This document shows positions 15,101-46,197 of a DNA stretch of 64,000 bases, piece after piece. The notes under the pieces were generated by a model that did not search any database, was not told the DNA's origin, and was given only the letters and a program-made list of their open reading frames with translations. Each line of letters begins with the position of its first letter. The stretch's first letter is position 1. Both the position numbers and the translations under genes were made by a program. The DNA comes from Marsupella aquatica (Eukaryota; Plantae; Marchantiophyta), in contig OZ316894.1 in assembly GCA_973895155.1 (NCBI GenBank), forward strand, positions 19,630,805 to 19,694,804, in the 5' to 3' direction.

Positions 15101-15884
15101 TCCGGTCCTCTCAGGTCTTCCATTGATTTTCATCAGTCAAGCAGACAGACGACGTTTGACGGATCACGGATGGAATCAAACCGTGGAGGGGTTCAGCAAC
15201 GAGCTGTGGTCAGTTCTGCCGTAGGTTCAGCAGTCATTATTGCTCTTGCTGCAACACAGCAGATTACCGAGGAACAAAAGTTAGTGGACTAGTGGGTAGT
15301 ACAGTCGTTGGAAGTCGCTGCTGCTGGTGCTGCTGCCATGCGGCTGGGTCGATCTCCACTTCTCCAGCCTGCGGCTTTCCTTGTCGTTCCCCATCCAACA
15401 TCCACGAGTAGGAACAGCAGCGAGTGACAGCTTTGTAAGTTTATTTCCTTGCTCCTGATGTCCCGCAGGTGGCTTTCGTTGCTGTAACTCTTCGCTCTCT
15501 CGTCCACGTCCCTCCTCCACAGCAGATTGGAGCAGGTGACGGGCTCTACTGGGTTGTGGAGTACCCGGGATAGATCGTCGATCGACAGGTGGTCGTTTAC
15601 AGTCCAAACAAGTCGCACGAACCTTATGATACTCTCGAGGCTTTGGCTTAGTATAGTCAATCAGGAACCGGTTGTTGTTTGCGTCTAGATTGTATTGGAT
15701 TGGATTGGGCTGGGCTGGGCTGGGCTGGGCTGGGCTGGTATGGTAATGCTTCAATTTGGTTTGATTTTTCAGAACCAGGTCGGTTCGGGAAGCTCGCTTT
15801 CAAAGGAGGGACGTTCCAGTTCGGGTGTGGAGCTTGTGCGTGACGATTGATTGATTGATCGAGTCCAATCCCAGACACTCCAGG

Positions 15885-23082
<7,198 letters not shown>

Positions 23083-30887: not shown

Positions 30888-31562
30888 GCAACTGGCTTCT
30901 AAGGTCAGTTGGCCAGGGGGGTAGCCTAGAACCAAGAGATCCCACGTTCAATCCCCCTTCCACATGCAGGGGTGTGGAGGGTATGAAGGGGCGTGGATGG
31001 GTGTGTGTGTGGGTGTGTGTGGAGGGCTGGGGGCAAAGTGGTGCGAGTACTGGTTTTTCTTGGGCCCCTTACTGGTTTGCTTTAGGGCCCTGGTTTAACC
31101 CTCTCTCCCTCCTGTTGAGCATAGACGACGATCGCAACGGCAAGCCCATGAACCATCCAACTCACAATAGTCGACACAAGAGATACGTGGTTCACCTCCT
31201 TGAGGCTACGTCCACGGGAACACACAAGAGAGCTTTACTAAACTCTAAGCCCATCGGCTATACCGAGTCTCCACAGTGTAAGCTCTCCCTATCTCTCAAG
31301 TGGCTCCATAACAATGAGCCTTGGTTCTACCTCTCCAAGCACACATGCCTCTTATGATATAGTGTGCAACTTAGTTGTACCTAACCACATAGTTGTACCT
31401 AATCACGTAGTTATACCTAACCACATAGTTGTACCTAATCACGTAGTTGTACCTAACCACGTAGTTACACCAACCCACGTTGTTGTACCAACCACGTCAT
31501 ACCTAACCTAGACGTAAGAGTAAATATCCAACACCTCCTTGTATGGGTCCCATTGGATTCCT
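30888..31562 (+). mobile_element. tRNA-derived SINE, diverged, interrupted by a solo LTR
   Basis: A-box-like tggcttctaaggtcagttgg and B-box-like cgttcaatcc; colinear with the reverse complement of 57059-57394 on both sides of the LTR. Confidence 0.65.
31113..31533 (-). mobile_element. Solo LTR (TGTTG...CAACA), Copia-like, with internal 18-bp tandem repeat
   Basis: 5-bp TSD cctcc at 31108-31112 and 31534-31538; tagttgtacctaaccac repeated about 7 times at 31372-31510; homologous to 42125-42444. Strand inferred from the GTGGACGTAG/GTGAACCACGTA motif. Confidence 0.88.
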
Positions 31563-31941
31563 GGTATTATCCCCTTGTGGCTACACTATAGAGGTGCATT
31601 CTCCAAAGTAGATCACTTAATATCCTCTGCTGGATGGGCTACTTTCAGTCTCTAGGAAATAAATGTAGAAACTCTGTCAGGTCAGATGCCACTTTTGAGA
31701 TTGCACCCAGCTCCATGTCGTGACATATAGTATTGTAGCCATAGTGTATCGAAAACATACAAGTCACCGGCAATGCATATGTGCAAGCTGCTAGCAACCA
31801 ACATGCATAGAAAAAGTCCAATCACATTCATAAGTGCCAAGAAAAAGCAACTGAGGTGGTATGTACGTAGTGGAGGTGTAAACCTCTGTATCCCCCCAGA
31901 CCACAGCCAAAAGGAGGGCTAAAGAAAAGTCAGGTAGCATG

Positions 31942-32067
31942 TCAGGAAGGGCAAAACCATAACCCTTCTGGCACTTGGGTAAGTTCAGGCCGAAGGCAGA
32001 AAAGATGGTACCCTCCATTGCAATTGTCACATAGCAGCATCTGGTCAGCATCGTCAATTCGCAAACA
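31942..32067 (-). pseudogene. PHD finger at the integrase C-terminus (frameshifted, not in ORF track)
   Basis: Manual translation CLRIDDADQMLLCDNCNGGYHLFCLRPELTQVPEGLWFCPS*; C4HC3 spacing with the first Cys lost to an indel and the last replaced by TGA. Confidence 0.85.
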
Positions 32068-32175
32068 CAGGGTAGTCCACAGGTGGAATCCAAGTAGAAG
32101 TCACAATGGTGGGATCCAGGTTAGGCAGATGACAAGGGGCACAATTATTGGCATTGTCAGCAATTGTGCGCCCAT

Positions 32176-33963
32176 CTACCCTTGTAACTCTAGCACTCCA
32201 AACGGTCGAATAGCTTTAACCCTAAGAATAGTACAACTGGTATAGGTGTCCAGGGTGTCGTTAGCTTGCCGCTGCAAGTACACAAAATCTCCCACTTCAA
32301 ACTTTCTGACCTTGGGCTGAAAAGTGCCCCCTCGTGTGTGTGCATAATGTAGTGTGTCCCTATGCTGTGCAATTATGGCCAAATTCTTCATGGCCATGGG
32401 CATAACCCTCCCGAATAGGGCAGCCCTCTCAGAGATCACATCAGACCAAGTCACAGCTGAATCCAAGTCCACCACCTGAAGCATGTGAGCAGCAATAGCA
32501 GAAGGCGGAATTGGGTAACGACCAAACAACAAGAAGTAGGGAGAAAAGTTAGACAGTGATGCATGTCTGGACATCCTATACCCCATGGCAATGTAGGGTA
32601 AGGCCAGGTCCCAATCCTCCTTGTTTTTGGTGAGGCAAATCTTTCGGAGGCCCTTCTTGCATGTCTGAACCATGCGCTCTGCCAATCCATCTGCCTGTGG
32701 GTGATCTCGTGATGTCCGGCGATGATCATTGAGGGCCTGATCAAGCAGCTCCTGGAACTCTCCTCTAAACTCTGAGCCCTGGTCAGTGAGACATTCTGCA
32801 CAAGCTCCAAAGCGGCTGAGAACTTGTTGCAGGAATGCCTGGCTGGTGCTACGGGAGGTCTTATCCGGCAATGCCACAAGTTCTATCCACTTGGAGAAAT
32901 GCTCTATCATGATCATGATGTAGAGATTACCCCAAGACATGAGGGGTAATTCTCCAGCCAAATCACATGACCAACGATAAAACATGCCCTGAATAGGGAG
33001 TGGATGAAGTGTGGGTTGCCAAGATGTGAAAGAAGTCCTTACCCTATCACACTGCTCACACCGGGCAATAACATCTCGAACCTGGCCATGCATGCCTCTC
33101 CAATGATAATGGGGGACTAAGAGGCTATAAGTCCCCTTAACACCAAAATGACCAAGCTCAGAATGTACCTTACGGATAAGGCCAACCCTCTCATGAATGG
33201 GTGGAACCACCACTTCCCTGTCTGGCAAGCAACGCACGAGATGATCTCCCTTCCACAAGTATCGCTTAGACCTTTGCTGAATTCGGTCTCTCTGGGCAGC
33301 AGTAACATGTGTGGGGTACTCCCCATGCTGTAGAAATCTCATAGTGTTGTTGTCCTCCCATATGTCCACCACAGGTTGGTCAACAACATAGCATGGCAGC
33401 AAAGCAAGATAGGTCGATGCATGACATGTAGGCAGGATGGAAACCTGGTCAAAATCTTGCCGTGCATCTGAGGAATCATCAGAGGTAATCAAAGGGCTGC
33501 GGGACATAGTGTCAGCATTCTGATGTGTCAAACCAGGCCTATGAATTACCTCAAAGTCATACTCCTGGAGGATGAGTGCCCAACGAGCAAGCTTGCCAGT
33601 AAGCTTGTCGTTAGTCATCAACCACTTGAACAAGGGCTGGTGGTCGGTGTAGAGAGTAAACTTGGTCCCATAGAGGTAGGGCCTGTAATGTATGACAGTC
33701 CACACAATAGCAAGGCATTCACCCTCATAAGAAGAGTAATGACTCTCTCCCTGATTGTTGCTCCTGGATGCATAGGCAATGACGTACTCCTTACCTTCCT
33801 CATCATGTTGGCCCAGAATGGCACCAATCCCAAGGGCACTCCAATCTGTGTGGAGCACAAAGACTTTGCTGAAATCAGGTCTTCTCAAAACCGGGTATTC
33901 TGACAGCTTCTCCTTCAAAGTGGCAAATGCTGCCTCAGCATCTGTACTCCATGTCCAAGTCAC
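32176..33963 (-). pseudogene. RNase H and DDE integrase
   Basis: LHTDWS, YASR, YEGECLA, TDHQPL, RWALIL; HSELGH...CEQC zinc finger; WSCDLAG, TDQGSEF, GLAERMV; GDFVYL GPY/F-like region. Confidence 0.95.
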
Positions 33964-33972
33964 ATTCTTTTT

Positions 33973-34845
33973 CTACAAAGCATACAATGGGTGTGCAATG
34001 GTACTGAAATCTTTGATGTAGATCCGGTAGTAATTGCACAACCCAATAAAACTCCTCAAAGTGTGAACATCGATAGGAGTGGGCATTTCCAAGATGGATA
34101 CCACCTTGGCCCAGTGGGCCATGGTTCCATTTGGAAGAATGCGGTGCCCAAGGTATACTACTGATCTGACAACAAATTCACACTTCTTGGGGTGTATCTT
34201 TAGGTTCACCTTCTTAAGCCTCATGAATAGCTCCTCAAGGTCAAGTAGATGCTGGTCAAATCCTTTGCTGTGGACCAACACATCATCAATGTAGCATTTC
34301 ATAAACTCAGCACCTTGAAGAACCTGGTCCATAACTCTTTGAAAGAATATGGGCACATTCTTCAAGCCAAATGGCATCACCAACCACTCCCATAGTTGGT
34401 TACTACCATGGAAAGCTGTTTTCTTGCGATCCTTTGCAAGCAGCAAATTCTGGTTAAAGCCTTGCCTTAGATCCACAAGAGTGAAGATGTCTGAGTCTCC
34501 AATGTTGTCAAATAGCTCCTCTGGCCGTGGCATGGGATACCTATCCTGGGGTGTGACCAGGTTCAGAGGCCTGTAATCCCCACACATGCGCTTCTCTGTC
34601 CACAATCCACTGGAATCCTTCTTTGCTGGCATCACTATAGCTGCTGCAAAATCTGATGTAGATGGCTGAATAAGACCAGCTTCATAGAGCTCTTGGCACC
34701 TCTCATCCACCAGCTGCCACTCATGCTTACTCAAACGGTGTCTCCGCCTAAAGATAGGTGTTTCATCAGCCAACTCAATGGAGAACTGCATAGTCTTGCA
34801 CTTACCCAAGTCCTTCATAGAGAAAGCAAAGTAACACATTCTCAT
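33973..34845 (-). pseudogene. Ty3/Gypsy reverse transcriptase
   Basis: RMCGDYRPLN, DLRQGFNQ, VMPFGLKN, YIDDVLV, KCEF, YLGH, LRSFIGLCNYYR. Confidence 0.95.
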
Positions 34846-35219
34846 GCTTGAGGAGCAAATTCAGCAGCTGGTCCTTCTGTCTTTTACTCAGGTGGTTGCC
34901 CATGATGAATGTGTAGTTGGCAACACTAGGAATAGGACCTGATGTACTCGTGCTTGAAGAGCCAGAAGTGTCAGCCTCTCCATTGTCCAAGCTGCTAGCA
35001 TGCTGCTGATAAGGTGATGAGGCCTCTCCAAGGCCTATTGTACCTGCTGATCTGGGTTGGTCCACACCATGAAACTCAGAGATATTGTCAGCCACGTTAC
35101 AAGGGACCTTCTCCCCCCCAACACTTGGACTAAAGCGATGAGTGTTGAAGAGGGGTAAGTGCACCTGTCTGGATGCCATGTAGCAGCACCATGGAGTGGT
35201 AGGGCTGGAACTCCTGATG

Positions 35220-36233
35220 TTAGATGAATGTACATTTGAAAAAGGATGCAAGTGACCAGAAGCCAGTGAGAGCATTGAGATCCATTACCCTGCCAAGTAA
35301 AGCATTCCTGGCCAGCCTGGTGATTTGGGTGTGGCCTATAGTACCGGATTGGAAGCCCATAGCCCGTTCTCTCTCCTCAAGACTAGGTTCATCCCATGTA
35401 CTGGTAGAATGTAGATAAACCAGGCCAGGACCATCACCCTGAAAAGCATGGGCACCTGGAAAGGACACAAATGTAGGCCAAGCAGCACGGGGATCTCCAA
35501 TGGTATTGGCTGGATACCCAGGGGCTGGCTCTTGCCGTGTAACTGGTTGGCAAGAACTGTCAGGATCCAAAATCTGGTCCACTGTGAGGTTAGTGTCCCT
35601 GGATGTGTGGTGAAGAGCTAACTCTAGCAAGGAAGGTGGTGCAAGGTTAGTCCAAAAGTTACGAAGACAATGTGCATAAGAACCACAGTGCACTGCATCA
35701 ATGAGAAGGGGTGGTCCCAAGTAGTGTTGGATCACACTGAAATCCTCTTTGACCTATGGACGCTGGTCAAACTGAGATGGAATATTCTCAATGATATAAC
35801 CAACAGTAGGGTAAAGGGATTGAGCCCAAGTGAGAACCTGAACCAATGCTATGAAAAGGCCAGAACGAGAATCATGCAGTCCAGCACCGTGACCAACAAC
35901 TGAAAACCCTTGGCATTCCCAACCAGCTATGATCAAATCAAGGGAGCCAAGAAGGGTTAAGTGCCGGTGCTGGATAAGCTGGATATCTGGAGGGAAGAAA
36001 GAAAATGCAGACTTCCATGCACTGTGTGGAAACTGCTGGGGAAATCGCTCTGAAAATTCCAGCAGATGGGATTCAGCCACTTGCCTTGCACCTGGATCAA
36101 TGTCCACGTAGATGTACTGCTTCACCACCATGCCGGACTGTAGGAGAGCTTCCAGGCCTGTAGAAATGCCACCAAAAATCTCAAGCAATGTAAGGCCATC
36201 CGGAGTAGGAGTCCATGTAACTGGTGTGCTCAA
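35220..36233 (-). pseudogene. C5-cytosine DNA methyltransferase domain, DNMT3-like, one in-frame TAG
   Basis: Motif I LEIFGGISTG, II YVDID, IV DLIIAGWECQGFS, V SRSGLF, VI IIENI, VII-VIII PLLIDAVHCGSYAHCLRNFWTNL, IX EERERAMGF, X RNALLGRVMD; ORFs 35754-36233 and 35220-35735 are in frame. Confidence 0.88.
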
Positions 36234-36414
36234 GATTGAGGCTATTGGCTGTCCATTGTGCTACCCAAGGTCTTCAAACTTGCGCAATGCAGTCACCAAA
36301 GGTCCATGGGCTGCTTGGAGCCGTTGTACCATCTCTGGTTGATGATCCACGTTGCTGGAAAGTGCTGCTATACGTGCAGCAGCATGTGCAGCAGCCACCT
36401 CATCATCATCCTCC

Positions 36415-36923
36415 TCAATCCAATCCTGCAATGGGTGGTTGACATAGGTAGCTGTGTGCACTTCTTTCAACACAATGGTGAGCCATAGGTGTATGGGCAC
36501 CATGCAAATCAAGTGGAATGTAGCCCAAGTGTGAGCCATCATTATGCCAATCAACTCTGTAGTATGCATGCTCATGCCAGTTGTCAATGGTAAAACCTGG
36601 TGGGAACAAAGCCTCCTGGCCAATGAGCACATCATACGTAGTGGCATTGGTAACCAAACATCTGATTGGGAAATGCAGTTCCTGATTTGTACCTCCATTA
36701 AAAGTGAGAGTGACGGAGTAAAGTAGAACTCTCACCCAGCACATCCTCCACAGTGCCACTAGCAGTCCGAATGTGCCACCTAGATTGTTGTAAATGATCA
36801 GTCAGCAGTCCCATCTTCTTGGCAAAACTGAATGCCCAATATCACTGGTTGAGCGCCTGTGTCTAGCATGACCACCTGAGGAGTGTGACCCTCCAATTTG
36901 ACTGCTGAATTCTTGTTGTCAAC
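36415..36923 (-). pseudogene. Retropepsin-like aspartic protease, frameshifted
   Basis: VMLDTGAQPVI read manually (Asp at 36863-36861) and downstream YDVLIGQEAL. Confidence 0.85.
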
Positions 36924-39051
36924 AATGGCAATGGTGGTGGAAAACTGAAGTCCTGTTGCTAGGCACTACTTTTGGCAAATGATGAGGTACCTTGTGAAGG
37001 GAGTTAGTGTCCACGGTCTTTCCACTCAACAACATAGTCAGGAAAGATGGAGCAGCATGACCGGAATCCAGTGTAGCTCTGGTCACACAATCTGCAGCAA
37101 TACTATCATCTCTACCACTGGAAATTGGTACTGGGATAGCCAAACCAGTGGAAGCACGTAATGGAGAAGAAGAAGGTCTAGTATGTACATGAGATTGGAC
37201 CTCCAAAACCGGTGGCATAGGGGCTGATGAAGAATGCAATGAGCCCTCTAGCGCTCTCATGATAGCTCTAGCATCTAGCTGTAAATCATGGCAACTGAAA
37301 AGTGGAGTTGTAAGAATCCTTTGTGCCATACCGGAGGTGAAATGCTCAAGCAACTCAGGAGAAACAACTCCCTATGAAATGTCAACAGCACCTGGTGGTG
37401 GAATGGATGTAGCTGCAGCTCCCTCCCCCCTCGCCAACAAGGTGCGCTCTTCAGCAAGTGTGAGTGGATGAAAAGATTGGGGCATGACAGCCCGAGCTCC
37501 CCTGGCTCTAGTCATAGGACCAGCAACAAGACCATCAGCCTGTACAATGCGGCGTGTGGAAGCAGTACGGGAGGCAGCACTGGCCTGCTGGTAAGCAAAA
37601 TAGGAAGGGCAGAATGAATCTGAAAATTTTGCTGTAAGGCCAGGCTGTGTAGCAGAGGACAACACACACTCACCCATATGAGCATCAAATGGCAAGCCAT
37701 AGAAAGAGCGGGGCAGAGGTGCTAAACTTTCAGTGATGCCGGGGCCAGGGATGAGTTGCACGTGACCAGCCGGTTGAGAACAACTAGCAGAGGCAGGTGA
37801 CTTGCCTTTGATGTTGGCAAGTTGGGCACGTAAGGACTCAACCTCATGAGTCAGAGACTGGAGTTGACTTGCCTGTGCGTTGTGAGCCTCCTTCTGAGTT
37901 GGTTGCTTCTGTTGTTGCTTGGGCGATTTATTAGCACCATGTACTTTGCCATTGGAAGGAGGAGCAACAAAGGCAATATGAGCCCTCCTAGCTGGTGGGG
38001 GAGTGGAAGTAGGAGCAGGATGAGGGGCCTGTTGTCGTAGCTGCTTTCTCTTTGGGAATTTGGCAAAACAAATTGTCTCCAAGTGACCCACTTTCCCGCA
38101 AAAATCACAAGACAGGTCCTCAGCAACAATATCACATTCATTAGCCTTGTGATTGGGGTTACCACAGTAGTTGCAAGATGGCAGCAGGAAAGTAGCATGT
38201 GCTGGCGTGGTCTTGGAACCATACTGTGGCACACGGGAAGGAGTGGCCAGTGTAGGGGTAGCAGCCTGGTACCTGGATCATGGTGGATGCGCAATATTGG
38301 CCTCATAATGTGCATGGGTCAACTCAAGTTTCTCAGCAGTGTCATAGACATTGAGCAATGTGTAGCTGTCTCCAAACTCTGAGAATACTTGCTGCAACAC
38401 TTGCGAATGGAGAGTTGGTGTGCCCTCCAATGCACGAAGATAGCGATGAGCAGCCTCCAGGTCAGTGATGATCTGGGTGTCCTCCTTCAGCTTGAGAAGC
38501 CGATGATACATCATCTTCAATGTTTCATCGCGCTGCCTCACAAAGGTAGCCAACTGCATAATTTTATTAGCACTCTTGATTGGGAATTCCAATTCAAGAA
38601 CCTGGAAAAACTCAGCCACTGGATCAGCAAAGGCAGGGGAATCAATGGTAGGAGAAATGCCTGATGTAGCCTGTGCCAAGATAGTGGGAGTAACTGGCGC
38701 AGTGGTAGGAACTGGAGTAGGAGGGGAAGTGGCAAGAGCAGCAGCATGGGCTGCAATGACATTCTGTAAGGCCAATTGTGAGGCTGCCGCAATTGCACTG
38801 GCATAGGCAGGGTTATGCAATTGGGTGATAACAAGCAACCATTGAGAATGCTGCTCATACACATCCAAAGCCTCATGGTGCACATACTTGGCTAGCTGCT
38901 TAAATGCAAAAGCATTTGTGAAATTGCTGCCGTACTTCAACTCCAATTTGTAAACGACAGTGTAGAAAGTGGATTTGAACTCACATAAAGAGATAGTGCC
39001 TTGCCGCCCGCTAAAGCGCTCAATGCCGCCAGATGAGTGGCTGGCGTCCAT
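36919..39051 (-). pseudogene. Gag-like region with two CCHC zinc knuckles, broken by in-frame stops
   Basis: ORFs 38278-39258, 37372-38232 and 36919-37353 are one frame; CNYCGNPNHKANEC and CDFCGKVGHLETIC; first ATG (MDASHSSGG) at 39051. Confidence 0.8.
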
Positions 39052-39929
39052 GCTATATGTCGGTGAAGCAAGAACAACCAAGGATGCAGAAGGGGTAAAT
39101 GGCAATGAAGTGATAGCAGGCTTCGGAGTAGTGGTGAAGCGACCGCCAAATGTAGCAGAGGGGTTGCGTGGTGTGGGTGCTGCTATTGTCTGCTGACGTC
39201 GTCGAAATTGCCTAGACTCCAGTGAAATTGGCACCAATGGTCGTGGATCGCTCCGCAAGTGGTACTTGGGTGTTGGTGGCTATGAGCTGCTATCTCCCGG
39301 CTCGTCGGCTGACATGCTGCATGCTCATCCGGGGTGCCAATGGGAAAGAAACTGACAAGAAAAAAGAGTGGCAACTCAAGGCTAGGAAATGAAACCCACA
39401 AAGGAAACAAACAATGCGAGGCAAAAATGTGTAGAATGTGTAAGCACCGAGAAACCGTCAAAGTCTATGCAGATGACATGTGGCAACAACAAAGAAATCC
39501 GGGAAGAATGGGCCCTTGAAAACGTGAATAGGGGCCCCCCTTAAGTGTATACATCGGGCCCCCTTAAAGTGTATACGTCGGCCCCGATGTGGTCCCGAAA
39601 ACTGGCAGTAAGGGTGCGCATCGGCAGGAAATGGAAACCGGGCCAAGTGGGGACAGGGTATCGGGGCACGGTGCCCTATGCAGGTCGTCGATGGCAAGGC
39701 GAGAAAGAAATGGAAGAAACGACTCTTTGGCCAGGGGAAAGAAAAATGGGCCTCAATTGCTCGAGCCCTGCATAGGGCTTCGTGCCATACTCCCTCCTTA
39801 TGAGCTCCCGAAGCCTCCTTGAATGCAATTGGGCTTCGTGCCCTGGCAGACACGAGTACTCCCGAGAGAAGGGAGTCGATTGTACCCCCCTTTCTTTAAT
39901 GTTTTGAAAGGGCCTCGTGCCCTGGCAAA

Positions 39930-40309
39930 CCCGGTTTAAACTGACGGGCACCTTCACGCCTTGCCGGGCACGTCAAATCGTCAAATGACGGCTCGAAAAC
40001 GGCCAATTTGATGGATATTCGATAAGATTCTCCCAAACTCACCCAAACCCAAACTCCCCCCCGGACCGCCTCTCCCCGGCCGGACCCCGAACCCAAACTT
40101 CCCCCCCGGACCGCCCCCGAACCCAAACCCGAACCCGGACCGCCCCCCCGAGCCCCCCCCGAACCCCTCTCGGAGCGCCCCCAAACCGCCCCCGAACCCG
40201 AACTCCCCCCGAACCCAAACCCACCCCCCAGACTACTCCCGAGCCAGGGTGCCAGGTTGCCAATTTGCCGGTCGTTTTTGCCCAGTTTGACGGGCAAGGT
40301 CAAACCGGG
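39930..40309. mobile_element. GC-rich MITE nested in the retroelement 5' region
   Basis: TIR cccggttt / aaaccggg with further subterminal inverted similarity; 8-bp TSD ctggcaaa / ctggcaga (1 mismatch); interior cccgaa/cccaaa repeats. Confidence 0.7.
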
Positions 40310-41964
40310 CTGGCAGAAGACTCCTCCTGAGGGAAGGAGTCGTATGTACTCCTCCCTCTCTTTACTCCATCTCCCCCTCCATTTAATGTAGCATAGGGCC
40401 TCGTGCCCACTTCTTGCACTCCTGCTCCCCTCCTCCTGGGTTTAATGTTGCTGAAGGGGCTTCATGCCCTGCAAGAGGACTCCCGAAAGGAGTCTACGTT
40501 TACTCCCCCCCTCGTTAATGCACTGTGGGCCTCCCGAGAAGGAAGTCGAATGTGAACTCCCCCTCTTTAATTCAGCATAGGGCCTCGTGCCCTCCTTTCG
40601 CTTCCCCCTCCTCTTAATTCGCCATAGGGCCGCCTCGTGCCCTGGCAGAAGGCCTCCCTGGCTCCCTAGACTCCCTGGCAAAATCTCCTCCCCCTCTTTA
40701 ATGCTCCATAGGCCTCCGTGCCTTCTTCTCCCGAGGGAAGTGAGTCGCTCCCCCTCCCCTGCATTAATCACTGGATGCGGAAGGTCGAGACGAGGAAGAA
40801 AAATTCCGAAGGGAGGGGTGACTGGGAACGTGACCCTATGCCCGGCCGATGTGCTCCGATGTACTCGATGCTCCGGGAAGTAGTCGCGGGGTGGCCGAGG
40901 CTGCCGAGAGGTGGTCGCGCGGTAGTCGACGCAGCCGAGAGGTGATCAGAAAACACCAAAAAATGGCCTGAAAAATGTCGTGGCAATCGGCAGCGGTAGT
41001 TGTAGGGAGGTCGTGCGGTGGTCGGGAATAAAAAGTTGGGAACAAAAGCACGGGCTCAAACGGGGGCGTTATGTGTATAGTTAAGTATACACATAACACC
41101 ACATTAAACCCATAACTTTCAACCCGCCATTCAAATGCTGCTCAAAGAAATTGCACCGGCTTCGATGGAAATTGTATGTACCAACCTAAGCAGCTGAGAC
41201 GAGAATGTCTCCTATCTTCTTCCTCTCACCACAGAGTTCTTCTTGAATAAAAGGCGTAAGAGAAACAATCGTACTGAAATCGAATCGAAAACCGGCGGGA
41301 TGCCAAGATCGGCCAAGAGCATCTAACAAATCACTGTGTGAATCCCGTGTACGGAACCGACGAGCACTATCTGAGCTCTGTCAAGAGCGATTCAAGAAGA
41401 ACTGAAAACCGACAAAGAGAAACACGCCCTAAGTAGGACCGGATCCACTCCCAGGCGTCACACTAACAAACACCTTTGCTTCAAGAACGGCCCAGACTCG
41501 CTACAAGAACATGACACTGACTCAAGTAGTACACTAGCCCTAACTACAAACCTAGCGGGCATGCGAGGGACATGCCGATGTGCACAAGAGGCACTGTCCC
41601 TTGGCATGACATCCAGGGAAAACCTAATTGAAACAGAACTGCAAATTACACATTATTTTGTAAAATAGCAAACAAAACAAAGGGCTACTTTCAGTCTCGA
41701 GGAAAATAAATGTAAAACTCTGCCAGGTCAGATGCACTTTTGAGATTGCACCCAACTCCAGGGAAAACCTAATTGAAACAGAACTGCAAATTACACATTT
41801 GTAAATTAGCAAACAAAACAAATCGATTCTACAACCACACATTTGAAGGTGAGCAAATCAGGATGAGCTTTCCTACCACCCAGGCTGTTGCTTTTAGGGT
41901 CTTTGAGAAGCTCTCCTATGCAGTTCACTATGGAGCTATACCAGACTCGGGTTTTTGGTTATTT

Positions 41965-42810
41965 GGTCTGAGTGGGGTCTTTCCCTTGGTTTCTCCCATT
42001 GTCTTGTTGTCTCCCTTTGTTGGGTCCCTTGTGGGATTTTCCCTTGTTTTCTCCCTTTGTCTTGTCTTCTATGTCCCTTTGTTGGGGCTCTTGTGGGTTT
42101 TTCCCTTGTTTACTCCCGTTGTCTTGTTGAGCAAAGACAACATTCACAACGGCAAGCCCATGAACCATCCAACGCACAAGCAGTCGACACAGAGAGATAC
42201 GTGATTCACCTCAGCTGAGGCTACGTCCATGTGAACACACGATAGCTTTACTCGGCACTCTAGGCCCGTCGGCCATACCTAGTCTCCGCAATACAAGATC
42301 TCTATATCTCTCAACTGACTCCATAACAATGAACGCAAGTTACTCCTATCCAAGTAAACACCGTTGGATATAGTGTGCAGCCTAGTTAACCTAACCTAGT
42401 CGGCCACTACAGTTACAATTGTAACCTTAGGCTAAGAGTAAACATGTCTTCAGTTGCTTTCTCCCTTTGTTAGGTCTCTTGTGGGTTTTCCCTCCTTTTC
42501 TCCCTTTTTCTTGTTTTCTATCTCCCTTTGTTGGGTCTCTTGTGGGTTCCTCCCTTGTTTACCCCCTTTGCCTTGTTTTCTCCTTTTGTTGGGTCTCTTG
42601 TGGGTTTTCCCTCCTTTTCTCCCTTTTTCTTGTTTTCTATCTCCCTTTGTTGGGTCTCTTGTGGGTTTCTCCCTTGTTTACCCCCTTTGCCTTGTTTTCT
42701 CCTTTTGTTGGGTCTCTTTTGGGTTTTTCCCTTGTTTACTCCCTTTGTCTTGTTTTCTCCTTTGGTTGGGTCTCTTGTGGGTTTTTCCCTTGTTTACTCC
42801 CTTTGTAGGG
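41965..42810. repeat. 58-61-bp tandem array, almost A-free on + strand, interrupted by a solo LTR
   Basis: tctccctttgttgggtctcttgtgggtttt units start at 42460, 42521, 42579, 42640, 42698 and 42756; more diverged units before 42125. Confidence 0.85.
42125..42444 (-). mobile_element. Solo LTR, same family as 31113-31533
   Basis: Starts tgttgagc, shares caacggcaagcccatgaaccatccaac and tgaggctacgtcca; candidate TSD tgtct at 42120-42124 and 42445-42449 (right end could alternatively be 42452). Confidence 0.8.
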
Positions 42811-43044: not shown

Positions 43045-43257
43045 GAGATTCAGAAGGAATTGTGGTCGACTAGAAAAGACGAGGTGTTCATCAGACTCAT
43101 GACTACTCTATGAAAAATGAGCTACAACGAAATGAAAAGTGACATGATCAGAGATTCAGGAAGGATTGTGGTGGACTAGAAAAGACGAGGTGTTCATCAG
43201 ACTCATGACTACTCTGTGAAAAATGAGCTACAACGAAATGAAAAGTGACATGATCAT
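43045..43257. repeat. ~106-bp near-perfect tandem duplication just upstream of the pseudouridine synthase
   Basis: gagattcag...gacatgatca at 43045-43150 and 43151-43257. Confidence 0.9.
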
Positions 43258-43358
43258 ATGATCTCAGTGATCTGAATGTTCATAGTCTTTCAGTCGTTGC
43301 TCGGTGTGGCTTGGAGTCTTGGATAGTAACCTTCCGATTTGTATCATGTAGCAGGTCA

Positions 43359-46197
43359 ATGATGGTGGTTCATAGCTTGGGCGTTGAGCCCCTCTTTCGC
43401 TTGCGCGCTTTTTTCCGAGGCCCAAGTGCCGGTTCCTTGTTCAGGCAGAAGCAATGCGTTTGCATCAGCTCGACTCGAGTTCTTACCGAAGCAGCGAGCT
43501 CTTTGAAAGTGTTTGCTTCCAAGGTGGAAAATGGCTATGCGGAGCTTGAAAAGAAAAACCTGGCAGTGGCGGAGGCTGAAAGTCGTGGGGGCTTGAAATA
43601 CGAGGGAATTGTAGAAAAGGGCGAATGTAAAGTACGTTTGGATCAATGGCTGACGAGACAGCTGCCCCACGTGAGCAGAGCCCGAGTTCAGACCAGTATT
43701 CGGCATGGCTTGGCTCTCGTGAATGGCCTGCCTGCGAACAAGGTTCGACTGCGCTATCCTTCACATCCTGCTAGTCTTCGAGTTTGTAATTATTTCTGGC
43801 GAGTGCGAGGGGGGAACAATTGATGGAATTTAAACGGAAGGCCCCCAATCGAGCCATTTCATCAGGGTTTAGGGTTTAGAGTTTTGAGGAATGGACTTGC
43901 GACAGTGGAAAGATGGAATTCGGTGGCATGGGTATGCTGAAAAGGTGTTTGCGGAGCATTTTCTTTCGCATTGTACTCATCTTGTCGGTCCTCCAGGTGT
44001 CTTTTCCAGTGAAAGGAGGAGACCACGTGCAGTGCAAGTTAATCGGACCGACTCCATCTAGAGCTGAACCAGAAGATATAGCACTTGACATAGCGTACGA
44101 AGATGAGCATCTTCTAGTCATCAACAAGCCGGCTAATATGGTGAGCAAGAGCTTGCTGAATTCTGAGATTCGACCCCTGCCCGAGTGCAATTACAGTTAA
44201 AGTTCCGAAATTTGTATTGCCAGTTTCAATGAACAGAAGGTGCCTATTTTCTATTTTTGAATAGTTGAATGTAATGGCATCGCTCCTAGAGTTACCGAAA
44301 TGATCACACTCTGTCGTTGCAACTTATGGTGCTCATTGCTGGCACAGAATTGTCTTACCATTTGAAGAGTGCACGGTTTTCTGTGACAAGATTGTTTCCA
44401 CCTAACGTACTATGGCAAGGTCAGGACATTAGGTAGAGCCCTCAGGAGACACAGTAGTTTCGTGGCTCTTACATGACGGCACCTTGCGTTTCGCTTCTCA
44501 ATTTGTGTCTGGAATTATGTAGGTTGTTCACCCAGCTCCAGGGCATTCGGGTGGAACTCTAGTGAATGCATTGCTGCATCATTGCAGGCTCCCTTCAATG
44601 CGAATGGCAAGTGGGTCTTCCTCTCCAAAAGGCCTACTTGGTGGCGAAGAGGAGCAACTTCAAGACGAGGACGAGGACGAGGATTTGTTAGAAGATTACG
44701 ACGATGAAGAAGCTGCGTTGCAATTAGTCCATGAGGATTTGTGGTCTGGACCAGCACCAGTTATAAGACCTGGCATTGTCCATAGATTGGATAAGGGGAC
44801 AAGTGGACTCCTGGTCGTTGCAAAGGTATTCTGTCAACTTTGTTGAACAATGCCAAAGAGTTTAGTGGAGCTGAAACTTAATGAGTGCTTTTCACAAGAC
44901 GATTCATGATCTTTACCAGTAGGTTGACATTTCATTGGAGGATTTGGTGGCAGTGTGTCTTCTAGTGTCACAGCGTCATGAGGAGTTTCTTTTGGTCTGA
45001 TGGAGATCTCTTTGTCCGATGTGGTGGTATATCAGGATGACTACACCCATGAGCATCTCTGCAACCAGTTCAAAGCTCGAACTGTGCGAAGATCTTACCT
45101 AGCCATGACATGTGGACTGCCACCGCGAAGTATTGGTCGCGTGGATGCTCCGATTGGTCGTGATCCACGTGATAGAAAGCGCATGGCTGCATTTCCTTTT
45201 GCGTCATCCAATGCAAGAACACGTTCCGCTGCTAGTAGGTGAAATGACACCTTCTCCCCCTCAAATACATGTAATTTTTGCAAATAAGACTCGTTAGCAC
45301 CCATATTAGTGATTCCCTCCCTTCTCGTTCCGAACCACGCTTGGATGTGGTGCATTAATGCACCAAAAGAGGGTGGATCTATCATTACGAAGGTAACTCG
45401 GTTGTGATTTGCAGGTAAATATCGCGTTTTGGAGATTATAGCAGGGGGAGGATCTGCATTGGTGGAATGGAGATTAGAAACTGGACGCACTCATCAGGTT
45501 CAGTATATTGAAAATCTCTTTTAAAAGCCATCTAAATTAAAAAGATACCTATCAGAAACGTACTCACAAGGTTTAATATTTGCACTTATTATCGAGCACC
45601 TGAATGGGGTCTCCCGTTTTTGCTTGCTCCATTTTGAAAAAGTTTCTAATCTGGCTGTGAATTGCATGTAGGCAACAGTTTTTCCGTTTCTGAGATGAGC
45701 CAGCTTCCGTGGTTGTGGCCTGCAGATCAGAGTTCACGCTCAACATTTGGGCTATCCAGTACTTGGTGATGAGATTTATGGAGGTACAAAGGGTGCAGCC
45801 ATATCACAATTGCTTCCGCGCTGTCCTTCCGGAAAACATGGAATTCTGAGGCATTTAGTGGCCAACATTGAGCGCCCATGCTTGCATGCGCAGACACTCG
45901 GGTATGCATTCATTGTTCAAATTTCAAATTAATTGTGTTTGAAGAGGAGTGATGATCGTGTATCAGGAGGTTTTGTTCATTCATCATTTCGAACACAACA
46001 TTGACTGAAACAGTCGAGACATCTCATTTTGGGTTTGTGCTTACAACTAAGTGATTGCTGGTTGTCACAGATTTACTCACCCTTGGACCGGGGATGACCA
46101 CAACTTTAGGTGTCCACCCCCTGATGATTTTGAAGAGATTTTGGAAGCCCTTCGTCAGTGTGGGTCCAAACCTGTGGAATCTTGGCACCCTACTTAA
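43359..46197 (+). CDS. RluA/RluD-family RNA pseudouridine synthase with S4 domain, probably organelle-targeted; about 471 aa
   Basis: Exons 43359-43742, 43997-44140, 44523-44825, 45036-45234, 45415-45497, 45726-45901, 46071-46197 sum to 1416 nt in frame. RLDQWL S4 motif, YEDEHLLVINKP, IVHRLDKGTSG (catalytic Asp), ETGRTHQIRVH, GDEIYG, LHAQTLGFTHP. Confidence 0.93.

Follow-up and report, generated by a model that had tools for sequence, protein, structure and literature searches.

A liverwort Gypsy-type retrotransposon with a predicted DNMT3-like methyltransferase domain belongs to a green-lineage family with split terminal repeats

Introduction

Retrotransposons that carry a DNA methyltransferase (DNMT) are described from two systems, KnitGypsy-Dnmt3 in Klebsormidium nitens and SymbioDIRS-Dnmt3 (text of de Mendoza et al. 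2018, PMC5890265), and the relevant passage of a later article restates that result for 'streptophytes and dinoflagellates' (PMC12344493). According to the 2018 text, two Symbiodinium retro-DNMT3 domains produced CG methylation in yeast; the Klebsormidium domain produced none, a result its authors call inconclusive, and human DNMT3B was also negative in the same test (PMC5890265). The sole plant-side example until now was an alga whose domain gave no yeast signal, and why a retrotransposon carries an enzyme that normally silences it has been a question since 2018.

Here we follow up a first-pass annotation of 64,000 nucleotides from the liverwort Marsupella aquatica (contig OZ316894.1; this whole stretch is called the window). 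The window element is a land-plant member of the KnitGypsy-Dnmt3 kind. In our literature search, which had most subscription journals, Repbase and Dfam outside its scope, no such elements were reported in land plants, and no report was found on DDE-integrase elements with split repeats.

As its text describes it, KnitGypsy-Dnmt3 is the closest known system, sharing with the window family an unpermuted DNMT3-related domain in a Gypsy polyprotein and purifying selection on that domain (PMC5890265). It combines DIRS-like repeats with Gypsy domains, matching the A-coding-B-A-B layout of the window element's relatives. The same text attributes its capture to the K. nitens lineage, whereas relatives of the window element are found in liverworts, mosses, Closterium and chlorophytes, and the text, figures aside, makes no mention of target-site duplications (TSDs), the junction, the purine tract or a PHD finger. 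SymbioDIRS-Dnmt3, PAT and Ngaro resemble the window family in the A-coding-B-A-B repeats (split repeats in PAT and Ngaro) or in having a methyltransferase in the element, but use a tyrosine recombinase, whereas the window element, with its TG..CA ends and 4-bp TSD, encodes a DDE integrase. Canonical Ty3/Gypsy elements (Metaviridae; REXdb, PMC6317226) share the order protease, reverse transcriptase (RT), RNase H (RH) and integrase (INT), the D-D(35)E signature, TG..CA ends, a 4-bp TSD and the purine tract; the window element differs in having no LTR pair and no visible primer-binding site, and in the added DNMT and PHD domains. Neither 'methyltransferase' nor 'PHD' occurs in the main text of the REXdb paper (PMC6317226). 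The atypical Gypsy-like Troyka was considered as a counterpart and rejected, being described in its text with CG..CG ends, a 3-bp TSD and an ordinary LTR pair, and from animals only (PMC12440569).

Results

Anatomy of the window element

The window holds plant genes with introns. The regions 15855-22271 and 43254-45490 contain a beta-amylase exon (PF01373) and an S4-domain host gene whose further exons, judged by motif, we take to be of RluD-type pseudouridine synthase. At 19743-20219 a frame may encode a BED finger; it matches no Pfam family.

The element occupies 31716..41611 on the minus strand (9,896 bp, 5'-TGTCATG ... CACGACA-3') and has the form A-internal-B only. Its limits were set by contigs from four public runs: summed depth was high inside and low outside, and joints fell exactly at 31716 and 41611. 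The termini are TG..CA, and a 4-bp TSD, TCCA, lies at 41612..41615 on the 5' side and 31712..31715 on the 3' side (plus-strand positions). Repeat A (~365 bp, 41247..41611, minus strand, as are all features that follow) is bounded by a joint 31891-41247 in other copies. It is followed by a leader of short GC-rich repeats whose frames match no Pfam family (39280..41246), a Gag-like region recognised by similarity to the N-terminus of P0093 and without a Pfam match (38296..39048), and CCHC zinc knuckles (38032..38187; PF00098, E 3.6e-4). The aspartic protease (LDTG; 36451..36932) is frameshifted; it was located by tblastn to P0093, PF13975 is matched in the relatives P0005 and P0375, and Pfam gave no match on the window protease fragments alone. 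The DNMT3-like C5 cytosine methyltransferase domain (35220..36260) lies between the protease and the RT (YIDD; 34033..34830; PF00078, E 7e-27). RNase H (33508..33960; PF17917, E 3e-36), a DDE integrase with an H2C2 finger (32518..33210; PF17921 and PF00665; D-D(35)E with a spacing of 35) and a C-terminal PHD finger (31945..32100; PF00628, E 8e-12) complete the coding region. A G-run purine tract (31892..31897) stands directly 5' of repeat B, the 176-bp 3' terminus (31716..31891) defined by joints and sequence.

The domain order of this 9.9-kb Gypsy-type element is Gag-CCHC-AP-DNMT-RT-RH-INT-PHD, and the Gypsy domain set is present in Gypsy order. No two direct LTRs surround the coding region, and inspection by eye of six loci and the window revealed no TGG-led tRNA primer site directly behind A. 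A tyrosine recombinase was not matched in 10 window frames or among the leader frames from related loci, of which the 30 longest (out of 148) were searched; decayed frames may escape such a search. We regard the window element as almost certainly of the Gypsy-type retrotransposon class with a DNMT3-like domain in its polyprotein. The split terminal repeats, the missing LTR pair and the PHD finger were features absent from the first-pass annotation.

Two other repeat pairs were examined as possible termini. The repeats at 31636-31715 and 41612-41822 were rejected as the element's split repeats: depth there is single-copy and the joints lie at 31716 and 41611, which together indicate a host tandem duplication interrupted by the element. 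This duplication of ~146 bp is the insertion site and mimics split repeats. A 79% identical pair at 31113-31533 and 42125-42444 was rejected as an LTR pair, each member having its own 5-bp TSD; these are two solo LTRs of an unrelated, very abundant family (TGTTG..ACA).

The methyltransferase domain

All motifs quoted in the first-pass annotation were recovered on the minus strand; their order is canonical and unpermuted, as it had claimed. By the usual numbering of C5-methyltransferase motifs, these are motif I EIFGGI (36182-36165), motif II YVDID (36110-36096), motif IV LDLIIAGWECQG (35942-35907), motif VI IENIP (35792-35778), the PLLIDA block (35711-35694), motif VIII AHCLRNFWTNL (35675-35643), the ERERAMGF block (35375-35352) and motif X RNALLGR (35309-35289). 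With the stop read as X, the window domain matched PF00145 at E 5.2e-6 and 26.6 bits against a cut-off of 22, the outcome that the earlier annotation had named as a check.

The proposed likeness to DNMT3 also held. The best 29 PDB sequence matches of the single window sequence were DNMT3A, 3B and 3C (best E 1.4e-7), and a 70-row family profile ranked DNMT3A (5.7e-25) ahead of DRM (2.3e-14) and M.HhaI (4.6e-9). An earlier structure model built from 11 rows reached a pLDDT of 53.5; with the 70-row alignment the value rose to 96.5. The latter model superposed on DNMT3A with TM 0.73, Z 29.4 and rmsd 2.5 over 270 residues at ~26% identity. Sequence and model together confirmed a DNMT3-like C5-methyltransferase fold, with predicted methyl-transfer activity. 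Compared with the DNMT3A/3B/3C catalytic domains, its best matches in sequence and fold, the window domain has WEC in motif IV, has no PWWP or ADD domain and sits in a retroelement polyprotein. The nearest neighbours in a sequence atlas were a Streptophyta DNA-methylase cluster (0.96), then two phage methylases (0.95). As regards the donor, the comparison covers a similarity ranking, DNMT3 over DRM over bacterial enzymes.

The window copy itself is dead. An in-frame stop (35756-35754) and a frameshift near 35264 interrupt the DNMT region, and motif VIII has Cys in place of its first Arg; further breaks lie in the protease, in RT-RH and before the PHD finger. Several of these defects (35669, 35264, 35166 and 34829) were absent from the dominant contigs of related copies among the 40 rows listed.

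Conservation across related loci

Related loci were collected by RT-RH-INT alone, and of 476 confirmed loci the best 80 by pol score were used. The scan covered 31 of the 64 parts of the collection, the 80 loci come from few assemblies, and with the window they formed 68 groups at less than ~98% RT identity. Bet v 1, DIOX_N and P450 are among the plant gene families in their flanks.

Among these best 80 of 476, the DNMT was present in 52/52 loci with protease and RT, which bears out the claim that it is built into the Gypsy polyprotein between these domains and shows that it is no one-off insertion. Where 1.5 kb upstream of RT was available the domain was found in 58 of 61 loci, and the three misses were also without protease and Gag. 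Summed contig depth was high over DNMT as over RT, depth not being copy number. With matches up to E 1e-30, the family profile recovered 402 clusters (50% identity). The DNMT had been described as contiguous with the pol reading frames. This applies to the family, in which P0391 carries DNMT-RT-RH-INT-PHD and P0375 protease-DNMT-RT in a single frame and the DNMT of P0094 shares one frame with RT; it does not apply to the window copy, where the DNMT shares its frame with neither protease nor RT.

Comparison of the window DNMT with 35 loci gave pN 0.24, pS 0.73 and a dN/dS of ~0.11, with dS near saturation. In the same comparison dN/dS was 0.05 for RT, 0.08 for RNase H and 0.14 for protease, and 0.22 and 0.40 for the linkers. 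Among the 35 decayed loci themselves dN/dS was 0.45, and none of the 35 had a stop-free DNMT. These results show that the DNMT domain belongs to the family and is under purifying selection.

The catalytic Cys and the motif VI Glu were invariant in 70/70 aligned proteins, and both motif VIII Arg columns were at least 90% conserved. In the window lineage the Pro before the catalytic Cys is replaced by Glu. WEC was the commonest form of motif IV (62 of 146 representatives) and WPC was found in 38 of 146, so that the earlier observation of a catalytic Cys kept in WECQ rather than in PC was correct, and WECQ is a family trait rather than decay. The window subfamily runs in frame from DNMT into RT and has WEC, whereas Klebsormidium has FPC.

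A second architecture, in which the DNMT lies between RNase H and integrase (RT-RH-DNMT-INT), was seen in 39 of the best 150 representatives, and incompletely in further ones. It includes P0100-P0102, P0104, P0106 and many of P0227-P0372, one of them named, from the chlorophyte Monoraphidium. The integrase bears a PHD finger in both domain orders. In Marchantia, the Klebsormidium cluster and the related element L162, the Gag-protease-DNMT frame ends with the DNMT and RT opens a second frame. At L162:3489-3497 CAATCA stands directly after the TAG stop of this frame, and pol continues in phase. We take this sequence to fit the UAG-CARYYA read-through signal, in which case the DNMT would be produced at Gag levels in that lineage. 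Viral contigs yielded no element, and the 4 of 64 parts scanned for methylases gave only distant phage-type enzymes (best E 1e-12).

Terminal repeats and the internal junction

Related loci open with A on the 5' side and close with B-A-B on the 3' side (A-internal-B-A-B). Among 39 distinct loci that reach the PHD finger, 20 have the B|A junction, 16 end after B and 3 were unassignable; one of the 16, L074, is B-A-B with a mutated junction. The G-rich purine tract stands directly 5' of B in 31 of the 39. Thirteen related elements have both ends. Of their 4-bp TSDs, 8 were exact (one of these in a T-run), 3 matched at 3/4 bases, 1 at 2/4 and 1 at 1/4; none of the 13 had an exact 5-bp TSD.

The junction is palindromic, CGACA-NN-TGTCA, with the spacer NN being GC in 6 cases, GT in 6, AT in 4, AC in 3 and TA in 1. 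GT, AC and AT are the products expected from deamination of GC. In the undecayed element L162 (53% pol identity) the junction reads CGACA-GC-TGTCA, the purine tract is present and the two B copies of B-A-B are identical; L162 is a collapsed, circularly permuted contig, and its two long ORFs leave no space for a tyrosine recombinase frame. In the window's own family, a B|A join with a 2-base spacer was found in 2 and 3 contigs of two runs and an A|B join in 6 and 7 contigs of two runs. Since other copies of the family show both joins, the window copy represents a reduced form. At L016:16801-17280 an A-B unit stands alone, with no coding region, as A1-A2 recombination would be expected to leave.

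Taxonomic spread and phylogeny

The nearest named relative is from the liverwort Calypogeia fissa (DNMT 76%, RT 81%), and named proteins carrying the domain come from Calypogeia, Sphagnum, Marchantia, Closterium and Monoraphidium. The Coleochaete relative is known from pol only. A domain protein clustered with K. nitens KFL_000540010 (90%) has the order CCHC-protease-DNMT and shares 35% identity with the window domain. In Marchantia, several gene models of ~1,280 aa combine Gag, protease and DNMT, and full-length Gag-protease-DNMT annotations include Mp4g09160, Mp5g06330, Mp5g06860, MpVg00370 and MpVg00540.

In RT-RH trees the window grouped with Calypogeia, Closterium, Coleochaete and Klebsormidium proteins and with the RH-DNMT-INT type. 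This clade of 20 rows separated from other Gypsy rows at 100/98 in IQ-TREE (30 chosen rows) and had a FastTree support of 0.985 (84/139 rows). FastTree placed the RH-DNMT-INT type inside the AP-DNMT-RT type (subsets of 84/139 and 86/196 rows); IQ-TREE recovered the two as sisters (100/100 and 92/92, 30 chosen rows). We infer that the K. nitens proteins in the trees are the elements of the 2018 paper. Land-plant relatives support the proposal that the strategy of the algal element is also present in a land plant, but that proposal was understated: with the window and the Klebsormidium elements in one RT-RH clade, shared ancestry is likelier than parallel capture.

Calypogeia fissa P0119 and P0145 represent two distant lineages of the clade, one of which groups with the Coleochaete protein and L162. 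L161 and L162 are an intact-looking eukaryotic family element inside an assembly labelled uncultured cyanobacterium, likely due to contamination from a green-lineage host.

CpG content and decay

CpG observed/expected (o/e) was 0.35 in related elements and 0.32 in their flanks (33 loci), and CpG depletion was therefore rejected as a sign of self-methylation. It was 0.82 in intact L162. In the window the element had lower values (0.18-0.37) than the flanks (0.52 and 0.58), which host silencing explains equally well. Seven short flank matches to other Gypsy remnants ranged from 0.09 to 0.59, too little sequence for a control.

Related copies showed C-to-T decay in CG, CHG and some CHH contexts, so the copies were methylated after insertion, whatever the DNMT did. 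Across L001-L080, from protease to RNase H, C-to-T change was high at CTG, CAG, CCG, CG, CTC, CTA, CTT and CAA and about background at CAC, CAT, CCC and CCT, a pattern that records host CHH preference. Special methylation of the junction was rejected, as decay of the spacer bases (0.35 and 0.50) lay within the range of 23 nearby CHG sites (mean 0.32). Genomic tests of self-methylation are weak because long-term host methylation swamps the short cDNA stage.

Discussion

The conserved domain and the unusual ends suggest a single explanation that we consider moderately probable as a whole: in live copies the DNMT would be packaged with RT and would methylate new cDNA before insertion. For its first part, cDNA self-methylation by the element DNMT, our prediction is evenly balanced. 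The protease would release the DNMT within the particle, where cDNA would be the sole DNA present; that DNMT and cDNA meet in the particle was proposed by de Mendoza et al. (text of PMC5890265).

For the second part we predict, with somewhat greater confidence, an integration route by junction cleavage. The plus strand would begin at the purine tract and copy B-A, and the internal B|A junction would serve as a template restoring both ends, as in split-repeat DIRS-type elements, for which the text of PMC7192593 describes such a role as proposed. Foamy virus integrase, according to PMC1180852, cleaves a palindromic LTR-LTR junction. In the present family, the integrase would cut the regenerated junction after each CA, leaving two CA-3' ends with 2-nt 5' overhangs, and would insert these ends with a 4-bp stagger. 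Such ends are the form used by retroviral integrases. A-internal-B copies, the window copy among them, would come from B1-B2 recombination or from a one-junction circle, and the PHD finger may direct insertion by reading histone tails.

An alternative for the enzyme, which we consider unlikely, is that an active DNMT acts on chromatin and not on free cDNA, methylating the insertion site or other genomic copies and thereby tuning silencing. It would arrive with the PHD-bearing integrase or be overproduced as part of Gag. The PHD finger in both domain orders is consistent with the former route, and the DNMT at the end of the Gag-protease frame in Marchantia, the Klebsormidium cluster and L162, implying Gag-level amounts, with the latter. 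However, the DNMT itself has no joined chromatin-reader domain, and both architectures keep it inside a processed polyprotein.

Somewhat less likely again, the domain is retained for binding and not for catalysis, whether to bind cDNA or RNA, to shield the internal junction or to act as a decoy for host methylation partners. The replacement of the PC motif by WEC in so many representatives and the CpG loss that is not element-specific are compatible with this, as is the Klebsormidium domain's negative yeast result, but human DNMT3B was equally negative there. The invariant catalytic Cys and motif VI Glu, the conserved motif VIII Arg columns and a DNMT3 fold that is complete in the model argue for catalysis.

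The repeat layout, A-internal-B-A-B, might have arisen incidentally, when an ordinary LTR element inserted in tandem or recombined, a reading now largely excluded. The window copy alone has no repeat pair, repeat contigs can be misassembled, and L162 is such a collapsed and permuted contig. Against this, 4-bp TSDs flank the A1 start and B2 end in full-form copies (exact in 4 of 7, with 3/4 bases in 2), no B precedes A1, the purine tract precedes B, and the same junction recurs in an element as distant as L162; the text of the 2018 paper also notes the layout in Klebsormidium (PMC5890265). That a single copy once captured a piece of host DNMT3, or that the motifs match by chance, is a reading to which the modest single-sequence Pfam score had left room; it is refuted by the domain's presence in every locus with protease and RT, its breadth across clusters and the purifying selection on it.

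Returning to cDNA methylation and junction cleavage, a wider and more tentative reading, to which we give somewhat less than even weight, is that these elements form an old Gypsy-derived clade of the green lineage, from chlorophytes to mosses and liverworts. The clade would unite split repeats, a palindrome-cutting DDE integrase and an active cDNA-methylating DNMT3, three traits whose joint occurrence had no earlier characterisation. The DNMT would have been acquired once and now occupy two polyprotein sites, and the integrase would make both ends by cutting circular or overlong cDNA at a single CA-GC-TG. Methylation of cDNA would possibly also shield the spare internal junction.

The family turns the story from a local capture in Klebsormidium into an old clade. 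Added here are the breadth and age of that clade, a model plant with intact domains, and a defined junction suggestive of an unusual integration route. The ends suggest a replication route between those of LTR and DIRS elements. Tools that seek LTR pairs would likely overlook such elements, and host methyltransferase genes can be overcounted where the DNMTs of these elements are included. With full-length Gag-protease-DNMT frames annotated in Marchantia, the activity of the enzyme, its sequence context and its effects on the methylome become testable.
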